IMG/VR virus record: IMGVR_UViG_3300025120_010521
Source of the DNA: a virus
Lineage: Duplodnaviria > Caudoviricetes
Direction: 5' to 3' (one strand)
Length of the DNA stretch: 64,000 bases
Position 1 is the stretch's first letter. Each line of letters opens with the position of its first letter. The translations under genes and the position numbers were made by a program. The notes under the pieces were generated by a model. The model saw nothing but the letters and a program-made list of their open reading frames with translations. It did no database searches and had not been told where the DNA came from. This document shows, piece by piece, positions 9,100 through 38,015 of this stretch.

Positions 9100-9288
9100 C
9101 TAGCTTATGCCAAATGGGTTATGCTGTGCTTCGTACTGTTCTTTTGTGATATCGTCTATTACTATACAGTCGTAATCTTCACCTAGTAGTTCGTCGAATC
9201 GTTCTTGTATCAGCTTCTTTGTTGAGTATGCACAGAATTCTTCTAATACGATATTGCCTTTGTATGCGTATACGAAACAGTAGTGCAT
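9100..9288 (-). CDS. Small hypothetical protein
   Basis: ORF track; TAATG coupling with the upstream ORF. Confidence 0.6.
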   Translation of the reverse strand: MHYCFVYAYKGNIVLEEFCAYSTKKLIQERFDELLGEDYDCIVIDDITKEQYEAQHNPFGIS

Positions 9289-9806
9289 TAGAACCTAACG
9301 TCCTTGAGATCATAGCCTGTGAATCTATGATATAATTCAGTGAATTTATCCTTGTTACCGAGACCTTGTTCTATCCAACAGCCTGCTAGTGTGGCCATTT
9401 TCCAAGGCTTGTTCACACTCATGCTGTGCTGTTCGAACCACTGTTCTATCTCAGGCATGTACTCCAACAGTGCCAAACCGTCATGTGGCTGTGTGCTGTA
9501 GAGTATACAAGCGGGTGCCCAATATACATCCTCGCAATAGTGTGTGTTGTGTATGTTACGCATCTGTGTGTGGGTTTTCATTGTTGTGGTACTGCGATAT
9601 TTGTTGGTATGATAGCGACTCCAATCAACTGCTTCTATGCTGTGTGTGGCTACGTTTGCCCATGCACAACCTTGATACAGCAGATTCTTATAGTACTGTG
9701 TGATGTTTTGTTCGTAGTAGCTGACGTATCGACTGTAGCTGGGCTCTAGGTCCATTTCCAATTGATTTAATTGTTCAAGTGTGTGATCTATTTGATCTCT
9801 ATACAT
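9288..9806 (-). CDS. Hypothetical protein
   Basis: ORF track; overlaps the nitroreductase 3' end. Confidence 0.55.
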   Translation of the reverse strand: MYRDQIDHTLEQLNQLEMDLEPSYSRYVSYYEQNITQYYKNLLYQGCAWANVATHSIEAVDWSRYHTNKYRSTTTMKTHTQMRNIHNTHYCEDVYWAPACILYSTQPHDGLALLEYMPEIEQWFEQHSMSVNKPWKMATLAGCWIEQGLGNKDKFTELYHRFTGYDLKDVRF

Positions 9807-10558
9807 TTAATGTCGCGATTTTCTTTGGAAAATGATGGGAATTTAATTTCTTTGGGTAGGTAGTGTATGTTACCTTGGTTGTCTTCTGCGGATATCTGTT
9901 TTATATCCACTATTTTACCCGGATTGTCTGTCCATGCTCCAGTGGCTTGTCCTATCAATACTTCATGTTGATCTGACTGTGTGTGTTCTAGATCCTGCTG
10001 TGGATATCCAATGCCTATGCCATATTCCAGTGCTTTCGTACCATCATTTACGCCATCCAATATGTTCAAACGTTTCCACCAATATTCCTTGTCTGGAGGT
10101 GAACTCATGTTCTTGTTGAAGCCTGTTGCATAGCCCATTTCCGCGGCCGAACGTGCAATCAAGCCCATTGCCAGTCCAATTGAAGCCAAACAGTTATCAC
10201 GTCTGCCCTGATATTCTTCTGAACGACCTTCGCCATCTACTTCATAGTTACGCATTGTATCTGGATACTTGCTTACAAAACACATGTAAAAATTAGCACC
10301 CATTTGTGGATTTCTCCAACAGCTAGGTGGTGTTGTTGTGGCTGTAAAACCCCATGTGTATTCTAGCATTTCTTTGATTACTTCAGCTTTGCGAATAAAA
10401 TAAACATCATAATATGCTTCATGTTGTTTGCTTGGGGCATTTTGAGCTATCCATAACCAGTGATCAATATGCTCTTGAGGTATGGATTTTGTTAGGTCCC
10501 AATTGCGTTGGCACTTTTTAATAGTATTAATATACTCTTTTTCTTTATCCATACTCAT
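9788..10558 (-). CDS. Nitroreductase-family flavoprotein
   Basis: IKKCQRNW (R-x-S-x-R equivalent), AQNAPSKQ, and ASIGLAMGLIARSAAEMGYATGF helix. Confidence 0.8.
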   Translation of the reverse strand: MSMDKEKEYINTIKKCQRNWDLTKSIPQEHIDHWLWIAQNAPSKQHEAYYDVYFIRKAEVIKEMLEYTWGFTATTTPPSCWRNPQMGANFYMCFVSKYPDTMRNYEVDGEGRSEEYQGRRDNCLASIGLAMGLIARSAAEMGYATGFNKNMSSPPDKEYWWKRLNILDGVNDGTKALEYGIGIGYPQQDLEHTQSDQHEVLIGQATGAWTDNPGKIVDIKQISAEDNQGNIHYLPKEIKFPSFSKENRDIKCIEIK

Positions 10559-10563
10559 AAAAG

Positions 10564-10571
10564 TATTTATA
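10564..10571 (-). promoter_or_regulatory. T4-late-like promoter TATAAATA (representative copy)
   Basis: Exact TATAAATA upstream of the nitroreductase and at 22713-22720 (+); ATAAATA variants precede genes starting at 11672, 12712, 13503, 26610, 30833, 33396, 37689, 39159 and 57159. Confidence 0.6.
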
Positions 10572-12052: not shown

Positions 12053-12712
12053 TTACAGTTTACCAAAGCCCCATAGTCTTTCTTCACACCACCAGCATTT
12101 ACCACAATGCGGAGTAATTGAAGGATCTAATTCTGTTTCCTCACATGTCCTTGTTACATTAAATAAAGTGTCCATTAAGTTATACTTCTTATAAAGTTCT
12201 GCAACACCTTTCTTATCAATATTAACAAGTATTCTTCCATGTGCTGTGTCTTTTCTTTTCTGTTCTTTATCACGACCTGGAGATGGTTCGTCATTTGGGT
12301 CATCAGGTGACCACTGTTTATAAACTTCTATTGGAGGGTTAGCTGTAACACCACTAAACTTACAATCTATAATTTTGTTTTTAGTTAAGATACTTTGTAG
12401 TTCTTCCATACGTTCGTTATAATCACTACCGTCTGAATGTATTGTAAAATGTTCTTTATGCCATCTAACATTAGGGAACTCTCTTTTTAACCACCATTTA
12501 ACTTTAGAAGCATACCATATATTATGAGGTTTTAAACCATGTATGACTGTAAATGGTACAATGGTACAGTCTGGTCGATGATCACGTATGTACAAGCAAA
12601 TTAGATAGGCTACAATGGATGAATCTAGTCCACCGCTCAACTTTATACCAATGTTTCTTTTGTTTGAATCAACGTTTATTTCTATTGTATCTTGTGATGT
12701 TTCTACAATCAT
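12053..12712 (-). CDS. QueC-like PP-loop ATPase (7-cyano-7-deazaguanine synthase-like)
   Basis: IKLSGGLDSS PP-loop; C-terminal TRTC...HCGKCWWCEER zinc site as in QueC. Confidence 0.7.
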   Translation of the reverse strand: MIVETSQDTIEINVDSNKRNIGIKLSGGLDSSIVAYLICLYIRDHRPDCTIVPFTVIHGLKPHNIWYASKVKWWLKREFPNVRWHKEHFTIHSDGSDYNERMEELQSILTKNKIIDCKFSGVTANPPIEVYKQWSPDDPNDEPSPGRDKEQKRKDTAHGRILVNIDKKGVAELYKKYNLMDTLFNVTRTCEETELDPSITPHCGKCWWCEERLWGFGKL

Positions 12713-12865
12713 TTTTTACCTTTTTACTTTTACATATTTATTATTAAAACTAGTGCAAGAATCCATTAACAGAAGTTTATTAATTAAAGTGGTATGTTTG
12801 ACTACTACTAAATTACAGTAAATATATATGTAGGTTGAGCAATCTACAAATAATGGGAGAGCAGA

Positions 12866-13462
12866 GTGGACAAAATAATTTTAACAGATATTGATGGAGT
12901 TGTCTTTGATTGGCATACAGCATTCGTAAAGTGGATGGAATTGCAAGGCTATTCTTCTACAGGAGTTATACATCATGACGCAGAAATACAAAACGAGTTT
13001 GGTATTTCTTTACAAGAAGCTACTGTGAAAAGAGAAGAGTTCAATGCCTCTATGGCTTGTTCTGTTTTAGAACCAATGAGACAGTCTGAAGAATATATTA
13101 AGAAGCTACACGAAGAAGGTTATCATTTTATTGCTATTACATCATTAAGTGATAAACCGATTGCACAATATTATCGTTACCTAAACATTGAAGATTACTT
13201 TGACACTGATGTATTTGTTGATGTAAGATGTTTACCAGCTGGCGCACCTAAACTAGATGCTATGATGGACTTTGAAAACAGCGGATTAATATACATTGAC
13301 GATAGAATTTCTAACTTAGAAGACGCATTAAAGGTTGGATTAAAGCCTGTACTAATGAAACATGCTTACAATATTCACTACGCAAATAAAAATGTACACC
13401 AGGTTGCTAACTGGAAAGACATCTACGATTACGTTACACAGACGTACAAAAACAGCAAATAA
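12866..13462 (+). CDS. HAD-family 5'(3')-deoxyribonucleotidase-like phosphatase
   Basis: LTDIDGVVFDW motif I, ITSL, YIDDRISN motif IV. Confidence 0.8.
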   Translation: MDKIILTDIDGVVFDWHTAFVKWMELQGYSSTGVIHHDAEIQNEFGISLQEATVKREEFNASMACSVLEPMRQSEEYIKKLHEEGYHFIAITSLSDKPIAQYYRYLNIEDYFDTDVFVDVRCLPAGAPKLDAMMDFENSGLIYIDDRISNLEDALKVGLKPVLMKHAYNIHYANKNVHQVANWKDIYDYVTQTYKNSK

Positions 13463-13502
13463 ATACATTTACGTATAGATATATCAATACTAGAGAAAAA
13501 CT

Positions 13503-14651
13503 ATGACAAAAAAATGGTGTAACGCAGGAACGTCTCATATATGGCTTAGACATGACAGGAAAATAACACCATGTTGTGCCTTAGGTGAACCAATGGAATT
13601 TAACCTAGACAAGGACGGAGACTTTCTAAAAAAGATGCAGTCTTCGGAATTCATTAAAGCAATTGAGCCATTAGCTAACGGTCCGTTACCTAAAGGTAGA
13701 TGCGACCAGTGTCTTTCTCAAGACAGTGCAACAACAACAGAAAATAAAAGATCTAGATCAGTTAGACATAAAATTAATCACTTTTCTAATCCAGTAATTG
13801 GAGCTCATGGAAAACAGAATAACAATCCTTTCTTTTTAAAAATTGACTTTTCAAACAAATGTAATTTAAAATGCGTAATGTGTAATAGTAAAAGATCAAC
13901 CGGTTGGGTAAAAGACGAGCAAAAACTTTCTGAACTTGGTATGTTTCCTAAAAAAGCAATAAGTTCATATGATAAGTTACCAGACAAGTGGTGGTTAAGA
14001 AATAGTAAACAATGGTGGGAGTCAGTAACCAAAGTTGAAATATCAGGCGGGGAACCTTTTTATGAACCTATGCTATTTGAATTTTTAGAGTTTCTATTAA
14101 GTATAGGAAGAAGTAGTATTAATCTTTCAATCATTACTAATCTTACATTATATAATAAAAATATTGATACTATTTTAAGAAAGTTTAAAAACGTTGACCT
14201 ATTATGTAGTGTTGATGCTTGGGAACAAGATGTCTATCAATATTCAAGAGGAGGCATATATACTTTAGAAACAATAAAAGAAAATATCAAACAACTATCT
14301 AAAGTAGCATCAAGATTAAGTATAGTAGACACAATACATTGTACAACGTATGATCAATCTAAACTAGCTAAAAAATGGATTAAAGAACAAAACCTTGATA
14401 ATGTATATCATAATGTAAACTATGTATATACTCCAAGACACTTAGATGTAAGATCGGTATTGCCAGACTCTATGTTAGAAACAAATAAAGATATTAAAAT
14501 TCCACAATCAGGTTTTAAAAAAGAAAAACAATTACAACATAAATTTTATAACTGGATTAATGCACTTGATAAAGTGAGAAACACAAACATACTAAACATA
14601 AGACCAGAATTTGAATCTTGGTTTAAAGAAATTGAAACATGGGCAAAGTAA
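13503..14651 (+). CDS. Radical SAM protein with N-terminal twitch/SPASM-like domain
   Basis: WCNAG...ITPCC; FSNKCNLKCVMC; ISGGEPF; ITN; SVDA. Confidence 0.9.
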   Translation: MTKKWCNAGTSHIWLRHDRKITPCCALGEPMEFNLDKDGDFLKKMQSSEFIKAIEPLANGPLPKGRCDQCLSQDSATTTENKRSRSVRHKINHFSNPVIGAHGKQNNNPFFLKIDFSNKCNLKCVMCNSKRSTGWVKDEQKLSELGMFPKKAISSYDKLPDKWWLRNSKQWWESVTKVEISGGEPFYEPMLFEFLEFLLSIGRSSINLSIITNLTLYNKNIDTILRKFKNVDLLCSVDAWEQDVYQYSRGGIYTLETIKENIKQLSKVASRLSIVDTIHCTTYDQSKLAKKWIKEQNLDNVYHNVNYVYTPRHLDVRSVLPDSMLETNKDIKIPQSGFKKEKQLQHKFYNWINALDKVRNTNILNIRPEFESWFKEIETWAK

Positions 14652-15922
14652 TAGCAATAGACAACGATATACAAAATCCTTATTCATTTGAAGTTACATG
14701 GGATTTAGGATTAAGATGTAATTACGACTGTACCTATTGTCCTGCACATAGACACAACAATACTTCTTCACATGCAAGTTTAGAAACATTAATTAAAACA
14801 AGTAAATTTGTTTTTGAGTATAAAAAATTAATGCAATCACAAATGACTTTTGATAGACAGTGGAATATTGGTTTTACAGGTGGGGAACCAACTAACAATC
14901 CAAACTTCTTAGAAATGTGTCAATACATACATGCACAAAATGATCCAGACGTATTAGTTGATGTTACTACTAATGGAGCATTTAGCCAAAAGTATTGTGA
15001 TAAACTTATAGAAGCTGTTGATTCTATTACAGTAAGTTATCATTGTGAAGCAAAACAAAAGATAAAAGATAATGTAGTTGCAAGAATATATCAGTTACAT
15101 AACTCAGGAATCAAATATAAAGTTAATTTGATGGTACATGCTAAACCAGAATACTTTGATGAATGTATGAAGCTCGTTGATAGGTTTACAGACGATAATA
15201 TAAAGTTTGTACCTCGTATCATTGGTGAAAGCTATGAAGATAGTAAGTATGTACATCGATATACTCCGGAACAACATGCATGGTTTAGAAACTATTGGAC
15301 AAATAAAAACAAAAAAATAAACAAGCCTGATGCAAATAAAGATGCAGAGTATGAATATAAAGATGATCAAAAGAAAGTACAACAACAAAAACAAGTTGTA
15401 CATACTCTAAAAGAAAAACCAAAAGTAGTAAAAGAAATATCACCAAAACCAAAAGAAGTCAATACAAGAAAAGCATTAGGAAGACCTTGCTGTGGGCAAA
15501 GAACTTTTTATACACTAGATGAAGATCAATATAAGAAAGACAATGTAAAGCTAGATACTAATGATTGGAAAAAATCTGTATTTGCGTGTTCAACTGAATA
15601 TAAAGAATGGTCATGCATGATAAATTGGAATTGGCTACACATTGAACAAGAGTATAATAAAATATTACATCATCAAACATGCAGAGCAAATTTTGGAGGT
15701 AAGAAGGGAGAGATAGGAACTATTACTGAGTGTGATCAAATAATAAACAAACTAGAAAAACAGTTTGCTACCGGAACTATGCCAGTGATAACTTGTCCAA
15801 ACAAAGTTTGTGGTTGTGGTTTGTGCGTACCTAAAGCACAGCATCACGATATAACTAAAGCAATGTTTAAAAAATCAGTAAAGAATCTTACTCCTGTAAT
15901 AGGTGGTACATTGAATGCATAA
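14639..15922 (+). CDS. Radical SAM protein
   Basis: WDLGLRCNYDCTYC; FTGGEPT; VTTNG; C-terminal CPNKVCGCGLC. Confidence 0.9.
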   Translation: MGKVIAIDNDIQNPYSFEVTWDLGLRCNYDCTYCPAHRHNNTSSHASLETLIKTSKFVFEYKKLMQSQMTFDRQWNIGFTGGEPTNNPNFLEMCQYIHAQNDPDVLVDVTTNGAFSQKYCDKLIEAVDSITVSYHCEAKQKIKDNVVARIYQLHNSGIKYKVNLMVHAKPEYFDECMKLVDRFTDDNIKFVPRIIGESYEDSKYVHRYTPEQHAWFRNYWTNKNKKINKPDANKDAEYEYKDDQKKVQQQKQVVHTLKEKPKVVKEISPKPKEVNTRKALGRPCCGQRTFYTLDEDQYKKDNVKLDTNDWKKSVFACSTEYKEWSCMINWNWLHIEQEYNKILHHQTCRANFGGKKGEIGTITECDQIINKLEKQFATGTMPVITCPNKVCGCGLCVPKAQHHDITKAMFKKSVKNLTPVIGGTLNA

Positions 15923-17123
15923 AGACTATCAAAAGTTTATTAAAGAACACGGTAATTCTTTTTGTGTGTTGCCTTTTACAGAAATATGTAATACAGCACA
16001 AGGACACGGGCAATTGTGTTGTTTTTCAGATACAATAGATTCAGACATGTACAATAATCAAATAATTGATACATGGAAAAATAATAACGTTCTAAATAAT
16101 ATAAGAGAAAAAATGTTAAGTAACAAACCTATTAAAGAATGTCGTAGGTGTTATCAATATGAAAAAGACGGAGCATATTCATTAAGTAAAAGACTTAATC
16201 AATCAATTGAAATAGAAAATAAATTTCCGGGAACGGTACAAAAAATAAAAGAACAAGGTGGCTTAACACTTAGAACTTTAGATCTAAAGTTTGGTAACAA
16301 ATGTAATCTTGCGTGTGTAATGTGTGATGGACATAGTTCTTCCTTACATACAAAAGAAAAGCAAAAATACCCTGTGCCTAATGATCTAAAAGAATTAATA
16401 GTATCAACCGGTGAAGACAATGACTTTGATAGAAATAACTTACAAGAGTTATTAGAGCAGGCACCAAACTTACTAAGATTAAAGTTTACAGGTGGCGAAC
16501 CAACATTATTAGATGGGTTTAAAGAATTTATACAAAAACTTTCACAAACATCATATGCTAAAAACATAGAAGTTATTATTGTTACAAATGGCACAACTGA
16601 TGTAACTAAATGGATACCTATTTTTAGTAAGTTTAAACTTGTAGATATAAACTGGTCTACAGATGGTATAGGTAGTACATTTGAATATATTAGATGGCCT
16701 GGTAAATGGGAAAAGACAAAACAAATACAGCAATCATTTAATGAAACTATTAAACAATATAGTAATATTAAGTCAACACTAACGTCAGCAATACAATTAT
16801 TAAATTTAGATCAATTGCCAGACTTATTAAAATATGGTAAAGAATATAACTTTACTAAATTTTCACCGGTACTAGTTATGTGGCCTGAAGCACTTAATAT
16901 TGGTATTGTTCCAAAAGAAATAAGAACACAAATAATAAAAGAATGTCAACCTTACATTGAAACATATCCGCAAGTAAAAAGTTTTACAAGCATTATAGAA
17001 AAAGCAAACAGTCATTTAACATGGAAAGACACAAAAAACTTTTTATCCTACTATGATCATATTAGAAACTATTCAGCGAAAGACATGTGTACAATATATA
17101 ATAAAATTAATAGTAGAGTATAA
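15915..17123 (+). CDS. Radical SAM protein with N-terminal twitch domain
   Basis: FCVLPF...QLCC...CRRC; GNKCNLACVMC; FTGGEPT; VTNG; STDG. Confidence 0.9.
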   Translation: MHKDYQKFIKEHGNSFCVLPFTEICNTAQGHGQLCCFSDTIDSDMYNNQIIDTWKNNNVLNNIREKMLSNKPIKECRRCYQYEKDGAYSLSKRLNQSIEIENKFPGTVQKIKEQGGLTLRTLDLKFGNKCNLACVMCDGHSSSLHTKEKQKYPVPNDLKELIVSTGEDNDFDRNNLQELLEQAPNLLRLKFTGGEPTLLDGFKEFIQKLSQTSYAKNIEVIIVTNGTTDVTKWIPIFSKFKLVDINWSTDGIGSTFEYIRWPGKWEKTKQIQQSFNETIKQYSNIKSTLTSAIQLLNLDQLPDLLKYGKEYNFTKFSPVLVMWPEALNIGIVPKEIRTQIIKECQPYIETYPQVKSFTSIIEKANSHLTWKDTKNFLSYYDHIRNYSAKDMCTIYNKINSRV

Positions 17124-17295
17124 GAGGATTAAACCCCTTATACTCTTATATAATTTTTGTGTATAGAAAATAATTGACAGCACCCAAAGTATATAACGCG
17201 AGTCCCTCTTTGGTGTGCTATAAAAATATTTATATGTATCTCAAAAAATATTAACAGGTAAAATTATATTCATATTAAAAGCCCTATTAATATTT

Positions 17296-17369
17296 TGGTA
17301 GCAGTGATGAGAATTGAACTCATAACTCTAGCTACTGAGACTAACGTGTTACCACTACACTACACTGCA
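17296..17369 (-). tRNA. Atypical tRNA: anticodon loop CU-CAG-UA, short variable loop, U1-U72 mismatch
   Basis: Cloverleaf TGCAGTG-TA-GTGT-AGTGGTA-ACAC-G-TTAGT-CTCAGTA-GCTAG-AGTT-ATGAG-TTCAATT-CTCAT-CACTGCT-A-CCA. Confidence 0.75.
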
Positions 17370-17410
17370 TACTATTATTTATAGGTTTCTATGTGTAGTT
17401 ATACAGCAAC

Positions 17411-17699: not shown

Positions 17700-20600
17700 T
17701 TATGTTAATGCTTTATATTCAACTGTAACTACTGCAGAACCACCTGTTGGTGTTGACGCTGAAGCATTAGATTTTAAAAATGCTAATGTAATTGTTGCGC
17801 CACCAGCCGTTGCTGTTGCAAACGGAAGGTCAACTACGTATGAACCAGCAGTTGAAACGTCCGCGTCTGCGTCAGCCACAAGTGCTAATGAACCATCACT
17901 AACTGTGATGTGATCCACTGAATCACCTGAGAAGCCTGTTGCTACGTGAACAGTTACTTTTGATACATAGTAAGTTGTTGAACCTGCGTTTGGCATAGTT
18001 CCAATTGTTACTGAAGAAGCGCCAGTACCTACTGCTGTTCTAATAGTTAGATCATCAACAGTTTGTACAACGTTGTCTTCAACCCATTTCTTAGTAACAA
18101 GATCGTCATCGCCAGATACGTTTGCTTCGTAACCATCATAAGTTGTGATTACACCAGTACCTTTTGGAGATAGTGTTAATGAAATGTTTGTGTCGCCACC
18201 AGTTGATGCAATTGAAGGAGCACCTGAAGCCGCCGCGTTAGTGATTGAAATTTCGTTGATAGCCGAAGCTGTTCTTTCGAAAATAGCAATCTCATTGTTA
18301 GAAGAGTCAAGTACTTTTACTTTACCTTCTGAAGCACCGCCAGTACCACCTTTAATTAAAACGTCACCTGATGCGTGAGCACCTGTACCGTTACCACCTT
18401 TGATAACTGCATCACCAGCCGCCGCGCCTGAAGCCGCACCACCTGATACTGTTAAGTCTAAGTTATCATCAGCCATTACAAGTGAGTTACCACCTGAAGA
18501 TTCAGAAATTACAACAACACCGTCGCCTTGTCCTTTAAGAACTAGGTCGATGTTTGCCGCACCGTCATCTGGATCTGTAGCTTGTAATGTTACTTTGTCT
18601 GCCGCATTAGTCATTACCAATTTGATGTTATCAGTTAATGTACCTGAAACTTCAATTGCTGATGTACCAGCCGCATCTCTTAATGCAGTAACATAGTCGT
18701 ATTGGTTAACTGAACCAGTTGATCTTAAGTATTTGTTTACTGTACCAACTGCTGTTAAACCTGTACCACCGTTTGCTACTGGAGTTGCTCCTGTGATGTC
18801 TGCTGTCATATCAACTTTTGCGTATGCTAGAGAACCACCTGAACTTACTTTAAGAACAGTTGAGTTTGCACCTTTGCCTAACTCTGAAACTGTACCGTCA
18901 CCGTCTGTAGTGATGATAGAGCTTTGTGAGAAAGAAGAGATGTTTGTACCTAAACCACCGTTTGCCGCCGCAACAGTACCAGATAAATCTGATGCCGCTA
19001 ATCCAGAAGCTGAGAAGTTAGTTCCGTCTGATCTTAAGTATTGACCCGCTGAACCTACGCCGATTTCGCCGCCGTCTGCTTCAACAAGTGAGTTTGTACC
19101 GTGACCTGAGATTGAAGTACCAAAGCCACCGTATGTTCTTCCTATTACAGAACCGTTCCATGTACCAGCGGCAATTGTACCAAAACGCATAGTTGCGTCT
19201 GCTACTGAAGCCTGGTTAGCTGAACCAGTTTTGAATGTGAAAGAGTCATTTGAATCATCAAAGTTAACAAATGCAAATTGGTCTGTGTCAGCAGTATTTG
19301 ATCTTTTGATCTCGATACCACCAGCTAAACCAGTTTCTTGTGATGTAGCACCACTGTTTACTTGCATGTATTTGTCTTCTGATGTAACTGTTCCAACGTC
19401 TAAAGTAATAGAGTTACCTGAAACAGTTAAGTCACCTGTTACTGCTAGGTCACCAGTGATAGCCATTGAACCATCAATAGTTGCTGTTGAACCTAATGTA
19501 CCAGTTGAGAAAGTAGTAACACCAGTGATTGAACCACCTGTTACTGCTACGTTATTAGCCGCCTGTGTTGCAATTGTGCCTAAACCTAAAGAAGTTCTTG
19601 CTGTTGCACCTGATTCTAATACGAAGTTTGAACCGTCACCAATAATGATGTTACCATCAGTTGGAGTTAAACCTGCGATATCAGCCAATTGTGCGTCAAA
19701 TGCCTGAACATTTGTACCAATAGCCAAACCTAGGTTTGTTCTAGTTGCATCAGAGTTAGCAAGTGTAATTGCACCTGTGTCTGCCAATGTAGCGTCACCT
19801 GACATAGCTGAATCAATCCAAACAGAGTTGCCTGTGTCATATAATAACATAGAACCGTCTGCTGGTGATGTAATGTTTACGTCAGATAATTCACCGATTT
19901 CGTTTGATGAAGCAATTGAGGCATCAACATACGCCTTAGTAGCCGCATCTTGAGCGTTCGATGGATCTGCAACGCCTGTAATAGCCGCTGAACCCATTGC
20001 CGCACCTGTGAAAGTTGGTGTGTCACCAGTGCCTAAGCCTAGTGATGTTCTTGCTGTGTTGCCGTCTTCTGCTACGAAACCTGAAGCTGAACCTACGATG
20101 AATTTACCGTCTGTGTCTGCCAAGCCTGCAATAGAAGCCAACTGTGCATCAAATGCCTGTACGTGAGTACCAATAGTTAAACCTAATGATGCTCTTGCTG
20201 TTGCGCCTGACTCTAATACAAAGTTTGAACCATCACCAATGATGATGTTTCCGTCTGTTGGAGTTAAGCCAGCAATGTCAGCCAATTGTGCGTCAAACGC
20301 CTGTACGTCAGAACCGATTGCTAAACCTAAGTTAGTTCTAGCATCAGCGGCTGATGAAGCGCCTGTACCACCGTGTGCTACGCCAATATCAGTTGCATTC
20401 CAAGTACCAGTTGAAATAGTACCTAAAGTTGTAAGTGATGTTTGACCTGCATACGTTGATTTAATTCTAAGTGCGTCTGAGTTGATTTCAAGTGATGAAT
20501 CATCTACATTGGCGCTCAGTGTGTTACCAGTTTTGTCTAAACCGTTACCAGCTACAATTTGACCTGTACCTGAGAACTGAGTAAACGCAATTGATGTTGA

Positions 20601-37858: not shown

Positions 37859-37935
37859 TGGTAGCAGTGGGTAGATTCGAACTACCGACCTTCCGAATAT
37901 GAGTCGGATGCTCTAACCAACTGAGCTACACTGCC
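37859..37935 (-). tRNA. tRNA with CAU anticodon (elongator Met or Ile2)
   Basis: Loop CTCATAT; CCA. Confidence 0.9.
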
Positions 37936-37938
37936 ATG

Positions 37939-38015
37939 TGGTAGGCGATGGAAGACTCGAACTTCCGACCCCTGCGTTATCAACACAGTGCTCTAACCAA
38001 CTGAGCTAATCGCCC
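37939..38015 (-). tRNA. tRNA-Ile(GAU)
   Basis: Loop TTGATAA; CCA; its 5' end overlaps the stop codon of the upstream ORF. Confidence 0.92.

Follow-up and report, generated by a model that had tools for sequence, protein, structure and literature searches.

The window, by which we mean the whole stretch of 64,000 nucleotides analysed, contained seven tRNA genes according to ARAGORN, a check proposed in an earlier sequence-only reading of this DNA. One of them, on the minus strand at positions 17296–17369, was called as a 74-nt tRNA with the anticodon CAG, Leu(cag). It matched the Rfam family RF00005 over its full length with 59 bits (E 3e-10, for a gathering threshold of 29 bits), and the sole non-standard pair was 1:72. 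The acceptor stem showed a U1xU72 mismatch followed by six Watson–Crick pairs (G2–G7 with C66–C71). The D stem of 4 bp (GUGU/ACAC) carried a 7-nt D loop with GG. The anticodon stem UUAGU/GCUAG contained two G-U pairs, U27-G43 and U31-G39, and closed the loop C32 U33 C34 A35 G36 U37 A38. The variable loop was short (4 nt, AGUU), the T arm read AUGAG-UUCAAUU-CUCAU, and the 3' end consisted of A73 and an encoded CCA. The sequence-only reading had described an intact but non-canonical gene. Its details of the D arm, the T arm, the CCA, U37 and the U1-U72 mismatch were all correct by direct reading and by Rfam, and of the two or three G-U pairs that it expected in the anticodon stem, two were found. 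It had also seen an acceptor stem shared with the CAU tRNA at 37859–37935, and indeed positions 2–7 and 66–73 were identical in the two tRNAs, the CAU tRNA having G1-U72. As ATA occurs at 27 per 1000, this CAU tRNA may be a tRNA-Ile2 rather than a Met tRNA. The minimum free energy fold of the single CAG tRNA sequence was not a cloverleaf, which we did not hold against it because of the covariance-model match and the covariation described below.

The gene was isolated, the closest other tRNA of the window being 16 kb away, so that it did lie apart from the tRNA clusters as had been noted. Upstream was found a 1135-aa tail-fibre-like protein, beside a gene with an Mtd N-terminal domain; the fibre gene and a 55-aa ORF preceded the tRNA on the same strand. 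On its other side the tRNA converged on a conserved operon (12053–17123 in the window), collinear in all relatives, which encodes a HAD/NT5C-like hydrolase, a divergent PP-loop ATPase and two to three twitch-domain radical SAM enzymes. The matches of the PP-loop protein to TilS and QueC were confined to the shared PP-loop motif. A functional coupling of the tRNA to this operon was considered and dropped, since gene order is kept throughout the region in every relative, which makes synteny uninformative on this point. Elsewhere in the window, the 172-aa protein encoded at 9288–9806 had a weak Pfam match to the Glu/Gln synthetase catalytic domain (16.7 bits, below the cut-off), which we judged to be spurious; the protein is poorly conserved. 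A G+C-rich hairpin at 17116–17145, to which no strand is assigned, overlapped the convergent radical SAM gene at its stop codon. A GGGG/CCCC hairpin existed at the same place in the relatives, and it is probably a bidirectional terminator closing both transcription units.

A T4-type late promoter box, TATAAATA, was located on the minus strand at 17376–17383 and ended exactly 6 nt before the +1 of the tRNA. This sequence is the T4 late-promoter consensus. The box was present at the same 6-nt spacing in all 24 copies of the tRNA gene described below, in the form TTTAAATA or TTAAATA in some copies of the more distant clade B. Base -1 of the tRNA (17370 in the window) was A and base -2 was T in every copy. 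From the position of the box we infer that transcription is late and begins at A(-1) or +1, which would yield a nearly leaderless tRNA. In the window TATAAATA was depleted, with 6 sites for 13 expected. In a complete relative with terminal repeats (328,149 bp; G001, IMGVR_UViG_3300020477_000990) 29 copies were present, and 21 ORFs had a box at most 80 nt upstream of their start; in the relative L103 the box precedes a tail-tube-like gene. The depletion, the placement before ORFs and the tail-tube-like gene suggest that in this lineage the box is a genuine signal. Directly upstream of the window's six other tRNAs no late box was present. The tRNA-Thr(UGU) of the complete relative (G001, around 323381, L243) showed a CTATAAATA box 7 nt before its +1, so that the CAG tRNA may not be the only late-box-driven, nearly leaderless one. 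Another TATAAATA box of the window (10564–10571, minus strand) was located 6 nt before the ATG of a nitroreductase-like gene (9788–10558); together with the two genes that follow it on the same strand, it contains 8 of the 40 CUG codons of the window.

Other conserved elements flanked the tRNA on the minus strand. The upstream alignment revealed a short inverted repeat, ATAG-N4-CTAT, at 17381–17392, overlapping the late box and extended to TATAG-N4-CTATA in most relatives. The same design was seen upstream of a second late box in clade B. In the window, this second TATAAATA box was located downstream of the tRNA, at 17227–17234, and was followed by a conserved hairpin at 17172–17223, visible in the alignments and in single-sequence folds (in the window -16.9 kcal/mol, z -3.5). 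The hairpin was judged by single-sequence folds; MAFFT left the stems of the two clades out of register. Its stem varied between relatives and its loop kept ACUCGCGUYA and a mini-stem GAC/GUC. The box and the hairpin together (17172–17234) were found at the same place in L081–L102 and L121, the GGGG/CCCC terminator hairpin coming next. The hairpin region had no match in Rfam, and we regard it as a candidate late small RNA of about 100 nt.

Orthologues of the CAG tRNA were gathered by means of the adjacent radical SAM protein, whose identity to that of the window lay between 37% and 88%. Related marine phage contigs contained 23 more 74-nt Leu(cag) tRNAs at the same convergent junction, and the 24 copies corresponded to 17 distinct sequences. 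The tail-fibre protein was an unsuitable handle because its N-terminal domain is widespread: none of the 80 loci that it gathered had a tRNA. Across the 17 distinct sequences, 95% of the cloverleaf cells were standard pairs, and both-sided, compensatory changes affected 14 of the 21 stem pairs. This combination of pairing and covariation was reached by none of 500 shuffles, and when the 3' partners were slid as a control the pairing was only 39–54%. The pairs 2:71, 4:69, 5:68 and 7:66 all flipped by compensation (2:71, usually G2:C71, was C2:G71 in L102), and the R15:Y48 Levitt tertiary pair mostly covaried. The D-loop GG (G18G19) was present in 16 of the 17 sequences, L093 being the exception, and the UUCRA of the T loop was kept with UUC and A58 invariant. 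C34-A35-G36, U33, U31-G39, C3:G70 and A73 were invariant in all copies, and the loop positions 32, 37 and 38 varied. The conservation of CAG and U33 in a loop that otherwise varies argues that the anticodon is used. The variable loop had 4 nt in 24 of 24 copies, in agreement with the earlier description of a CAG anticodon on a short-variable-loop body. CCA was encoded in all copies except one: L092 has UCA instead (L092:5508–5510), and this copy would therefore need 3'-end repair by the CCA-adding enzyme.

With 23 further copies in relatives and strong covariation, the CAG tRNA is well beyond chance. Seen in one sequence, U37, the U1xU72 mismatch and the two G-U pairs look like damage, as in a decaying pseudogene or a sequencing error. 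The 24 copies, their compensatory evolution and their invariant functional positions refute this explanation, to which we give practically no credence. Judged by its pattern of substitution, the CAG tRNA is a working RNA under purifying selection.

The copies fell into two clades distinguished by the anticodon loop. In the clade of the window (16 copies, 12 distinct) the loop was CUCAGUA, with U37, in all members. In the more distant sister clade B (8 copies, including that of the 328-kb genome) it was UUCAGGA or UUCAGGU, the latter identical to the loop of the E. coli leuV tRNA-Leu(CAG). A canonical loop in relatives, which the sequence-only reading had associated with sequencing error or decay, thus exists in clade B, but the 16 copies of the window clade all share CUCAGUA. 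U37 does not result from error or decay, because it is fixed in this clade while the stems change by compensation. The comparison of the clades indicates that U37 is a derived, fixed state and that the ancestor had the loop of an ordinary CUG decoder.

The first pair of the acceptor stem was Watson–Crick in none of the 24 copies. In 16 of the 17 aligned distinct sequences 1:72 was UxU, CxU, CxC or UxC, and in the remaining one (L101, with L161 identical) it was G-U. The changes at positions 1 and 72 were mostly U/C transitions. As these keep a mismatch by default, they reveal its persistence and do not prove positive selection. We also observed U72, as a G1-U72 pair with A73, in the CAU tRNA and the Ile(GAU) tRNA (37939–38015) of the window and in the Leu(UAA) tRNA of the 328-kb relative, and U72 is therefore common among the A73 tRNAs of the lineage. 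In one rival explanation the CAG tRNA would be a late, non-elongating tRNA. It would either hand its amino acid to a non-ribosomal transferase or act on a tRNA-binding enzyme, for example an anticodon nuclease or an acceptor-end toxin, as a decoy or inhibitor; recognition would then rest on the CAG loop together with the open end of the acceptor. The four pyrimidine–pyrimidine states of a pair that is never Watson–Crick, in a molecule where other stem pairs are repaired by compensation, are consistent with such a role, as are the late promoter of the gene and the near absence of its cognate codon (see below). EF-Tu binding is reduced by a 1x72 mismatch, which also protects from peptidyl-tRNA hydrolase (PMC6393288, PMC11231383). 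Against it, the U/C transitions maintain the mismatch without any need for selection, a donor charged by LeuRS would not need an invariant anticodon, and the loop of clade B is a textbook decoding loop. We consider a donor or decoy unlikely, also in view of the enzymes discussed further on.

The distribution of the family was narrow. A blastn search of 50,697 cultured or deposited phages found no homologue of the CAG tRNA; the best matches, all weak and partial, were with tRNA-Gly, Trp, Met and Asn. In IMG/VR only the one 328-kb relative was matched by exact and degenerate tRNA patterns, and the clade of the window was absent by these patterns. A family-wide degenerate pattern had no match in 185,579 prokaryote genomes, and no host or prophage source therefore emerged. 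The CAG tRNA family is confined to one lineage of giant, uncultured marine T4-type phages, and we found no description of it in the papers searched.

The codon read by this anticodon is hardly used by the phages. CUG represented 40 of the 18,004 codons of the window (2.2 per 1000) and 69 of the 101,286 codons of the complete relative (0.68 per 1000), where it is the fifth-rarest sense codon. In the latter genome 364 of 423 ORFs had no CUG, and the 59 with at least one included the tail fibre and a 3986-aa protein. The 14 other tRNAs of the complete relative serve codons used at 8–57 per 1000, which makes the CAG tRNA an outlier. Codon supply fails to explain it, because CUG is so rare in both the window and the relative, and the earlier doubt that this is an ordinary Leu tRNA was justified. 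CUG is not specifically avoided, its share being in line with that of other G-ending codons: in the complete relative CTG made up 8.7% of CTA plus CTG, compared to 9–14% in the other pairs. Across loci, CUG use showed no consistent link with the presence of the tRNA. In homologous regions the U37 clade (L081–L096) used CUG at 2–5.6 per 1000, often above the G-ending share, and the G37 clade (L097–L121, L161) at 0.3–1.1 per 1000, below this share, the counts being small.

A rare codon associated with a dedicated tRNA under a stage-specific promoter recalls a bldA-like timing switch. The host would read CUG poorly or not at all, or would lose its reader, and genes containing CUG would reach completion only with the arrival of the late tRNA. 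The fibre gene has a single CUG, at Leu197 (20517–20519, minus strand), which was kept in 9 of 11 orthologues despite synonymous variation of the flanking codons, as would be expected of such a switch. This conservation was not counted as evidence, as about ten other columns of the same gene keep other rare codons (ACG, AGT, ATA, CGT) and the codon identity between the clades is still 68%, with unsaturated synonymous sites; CUG is statistically unremarkable in this respect. The switch is also at odds with the lack of a late-gene bias of CUG in the complete relative (0.42 per 1000 behind late boxes and 0.47 per 1000 elsewhere). The enrichment at N-termini, with 39% of the CUG codons within the first 30 codons, offers it no help: CTC, CGG and CCC were enriched likewise, this being common to all rare G+C-rich codons, and a CUG-specific effect was rejected. 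Such a switch seems to us quite improbable.

CUG start codons were also rejected, as the N-proximal CTGs lie in ordinary N-terminal coding sequence and no Shine-Dalgarno sequence was found ahead of the CTGs in the first 30 codons of the ORFs of the 328-kb relative. Both observations weigh against an initiator-like tRNA that would be formylated and would start translation at CUG. A73, which the phage tRNA possesses, is a further Fmt determinant. The other determinants of the acceptor end, the 1x72 mismatch, G2:C71 and C3:G70 (PMC6393288), are present as well, but since the CAU tRNA shares G2:C71, C3:G70 and A73, nothing in these features singles out the CAG tRNA. Pair 11:24 is U:A, of the elongator type, and the three G:C pairs of the initiator (29:41, 30:40, 31:39) are absent, 31:39 being U-G in all copies and 29:41 being A:U in the window. 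An initiator is disfavoured to the point of having very little probability.

Which amino acid the tRNA receives can be approached from its identity elements. The E. coli LeuRS relies on A73 and the D/T-loop elbow, without the anticodon or the long arm, and its identity set also includes the A15:U48 Levitt pair and A20a (PMC9976931). In the phage family A73 is invariant and the G18G19/T-loop elbow is present, with GG in 16 of the 17 distinct sequences. Pair 15:48 varies between A15:U48 and G15:C48 among the copies, with G15 and U48 in the window, and the 7-nt D loop has no 20a. The long variable arm typical of bacterial (type II) tRNA-Leu was absent in all 24 copies. We know of no anticodon-reading synthetase that accepts CAG, and the tRNA lacks both the G3:U70 read by AlaRS and the long arm read by SerRS, which leaves LeuRS as the remaining candidate. 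Leucylation is plausible on these grounds, even if two points speak against it: the only known bacterial short-arm tRNA-Leu is not charged by the E. coli LeuRS (PMC6614811), and A20a is missing from the phage tRNA. In the complete relative no class Ia synthetase, formyltransferase, L/F-transferase or FemAB (for the last two, PF03588 and PF02388) was found, and host enzymes must therefore act on the tRNA.

These results bear on the roles initially put forward. A mistranslating or recoding tRNA, inserting an amino acid other than leucine at CUG, would fit the non-Leu-like body and its best phage matches, weak as they all are, with Gly, Trp, Met and Asn tRNAs. It would also fit the upper acceptor stem equal to that of the phage's own CAU tRNA, and the avoidance of CUG by the phage. 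This avoidance is, however, what the general shortage of G-ending codons predicts, LeuRS is the sole candidate synthetase, and the phage appears to have no class Ia synthetase of its own. We give mistranslation only a slim chance, slightly below that of the timing switch. The aminoacyl donor has no partner enzyme among those searched in the complete relative, where L/F-transferase, FemAB and formyltransferase are missing, although host enzymes could still act. The notion of a repair substrate is weakened, no Rnl2-type RNA ligase having been found in the complete relative; a search for T4 Rnl1 was blank too, but its control also matched no genome, so that it is uninformative.

We tentatively propose, with somewhat less than even confidence, that the CAG tRNA is a private CUG reader made late in infection, probably leucylated by the host LeuRS and unlike the host tRNA-Leu in the eyes of tRNA-targeting enzymes. 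In this model, a T4-type promoter of the gene itself would drive late synthesis of a transcript having hardly any 5' leader. The product would most likely be charged with leucine by the host LeuRS, because the bacterial enzyme reads A73 and the elbow and ignores the anticodon and the long arm, and it would decode CUG on the ribosome. Its short-arm, non-Leu body and its unpaired 1:72 would act as a disguise, to which the window clade would have added the change of G37 to U. The enzymes evaded would be those recognising the long arm, a G36G37 loop motif or a paired acceptor end. They could be host anticodon nucleases or toxins, or the agents of a phage-induced attack on the host CUG reader. The few CUG codons of the phage genes would in this way still be readable late in infection.

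The attack on the host reader has a precedent among T4-type phages: T-even infection reportedly leads to cleavage of the host CUG-reading tRNA-Leu, as attributed to Yudelevich (1971) and to Kano-Sueoka and Sueoka. A cleavage of this type would create the need for a private CUG reader. The toxin VapC-mt11 cuts tRNA-Leu(CAG) in vivo, after a required GG in the anticodon stem-loop (PMC6459853). In the window clade only, U37 removes G36G37 and C32 replaces U32, so that the tRNA differs from the canonical isoacceptor at a position read by a nuclease. Phage tRNAs have been proposed to escape anticodon nucleases by loop changes (PMC10264068). The suggestion of the sequence-only reading that anticodon nucleases are involved is retained as a possibility in the form of evasion, which the loss of the G36G37 motif fits.

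The private reader has its weak points. A spare CUG reader would bring little advantage, as CUG is nearly unused and the other phage tRNAs serve codons at 8 per 1000 or more, and the host tRNA-Leu(UAG) may read CUG anyway. The 1:72 mismatch lowers EF-Tu binding without abolishing it (PMC6393288), and decoding should suffer from a pyrimidine at position 37. The same points, codon demand and the costs of U37 and 1:72, also feed the rival readings. We see a modest chance, greater than that of the donor or decoy taken alone, that the family represents a new functional class unrelated to leucine supply, a late, nearly leaderless tRNA binding EF-Tu poorly, with a regulatory, decoy or non-ribosomal role. 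The CAG anticodon and a deliberately unpaired 1:72 would then serve this role, for example by gating or sabotaging late CUG decoding, with the pyrimidine at position 37 as a further step taken in one clade.

Codon supply is the usual explanation of phage tRNAs, to which escape from anticodon nucleases has recently been added. Codon supply does not fit the CAG tRNA family at all, and nuclease escape fits only partly. Here a tRNA under clear selection, with its own late promoter, reads a codon that is among the rarest of the genome encoding it. It combines three features each very rare in bacterial-type tRNAs: a short-arm body with a Leu anticodon, a maintained pyrimidine–pyrimidine 1:72 and a pyrimidine at position 37. 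So unusual a structure suggests a specialised role late in infection. If it is leucylated, the tRNA constitutes a natural test of the minimal needs of the bacterial LeuRS and could be put forward directly as an orthogonal CUG decoder. Should it prove not to be, giant phages would seem to use tRNAs in a way not yet known.

Several known systems resemble the CAG tRNA in part. Randau et al. (2008) are said to have described leaderless tRNA genes in Nanoarchaeum equitans, with a promoter at a fixed distance. The phage gene shares the fixed distance, and with it the implication that transcription should start at the tRNA +1 or one base before, as well as a purine that never varies at -1, position 1 being a pyrimidine. 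It differs in belonging to a bacterial virus, in its T4-type late promoter and in being a single gene, whose start is predicted from sequence. In Streptomyces, bldA is a temporally controlled tRNA-Leu(UAA) for the rarest Leu codon of the genome. The phage offers a mirror image in composition, with an A+T-rich genome and a rare G-ending codon, and a regulated gene set is not apparent. The bacterial initiator tRNA-fMet has in common with it the 1x72 mismatch, G2:C71 and C3:G70 (PMC6393288) and A73, but the phage anticodon is CAG instead of CAU and pair 11:24 is U11:A24 instead of A11:U24.

The tRNA-Leu(CAG) of E. coli (leuV/leuP/leuQ) has the same anticodon, the same A73 and, for clade B members with UUCAGGU, the same loop. 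With 87 nt and a stem-loop variable arm, leuV contrasts with the 4-nt variable loop of the phage tRNA, whose 1:72 is unpaired, whose D arm is unrelated and which in the window clade has C32 and U37 where leuV has U32 and G37. The m1G37 modification cannot be made in this clade, since U37 replaces G37. In its build, a Leu anticodon on a short-variable-loop body, the phage tRNA resembles the tRNA-Leu(CAA) of Streptomyces coelicolor and animal mitochondrial tRNA-Leu (PMC6614811). The short-arm tRNA-Leu also coexists with a long-arm tRNA-Leu (PMC6614811), and the phage likewise encodes a long-arm Leu-UAA. The known short-arm tRNAs are leucylated by an adapted LeuRS, the Streptomyces type I tRNA being rejected by that of E. 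coli (PMC6614811), whereas the phage likeness is one of build. Finally, nuclease-escaping phage tRNAs are represented by the T5 model (PMC10264068), the T5 tRNA-Lys facing PARIS (PMC11464382) and a phage tRNA-Tyr facing retron effectors (PMC11555353). As in these cases, the loop of the CAG tRNA departs from the host form at a position read by a nuclease, here the GG of VapC-mt11 (PMC6459853). The tRNAs of those phages replace heavily used isoacceptors, whereas the CAG tRNA serves a hardly used codon and differs from the host form in its body type and acceptor end as well.
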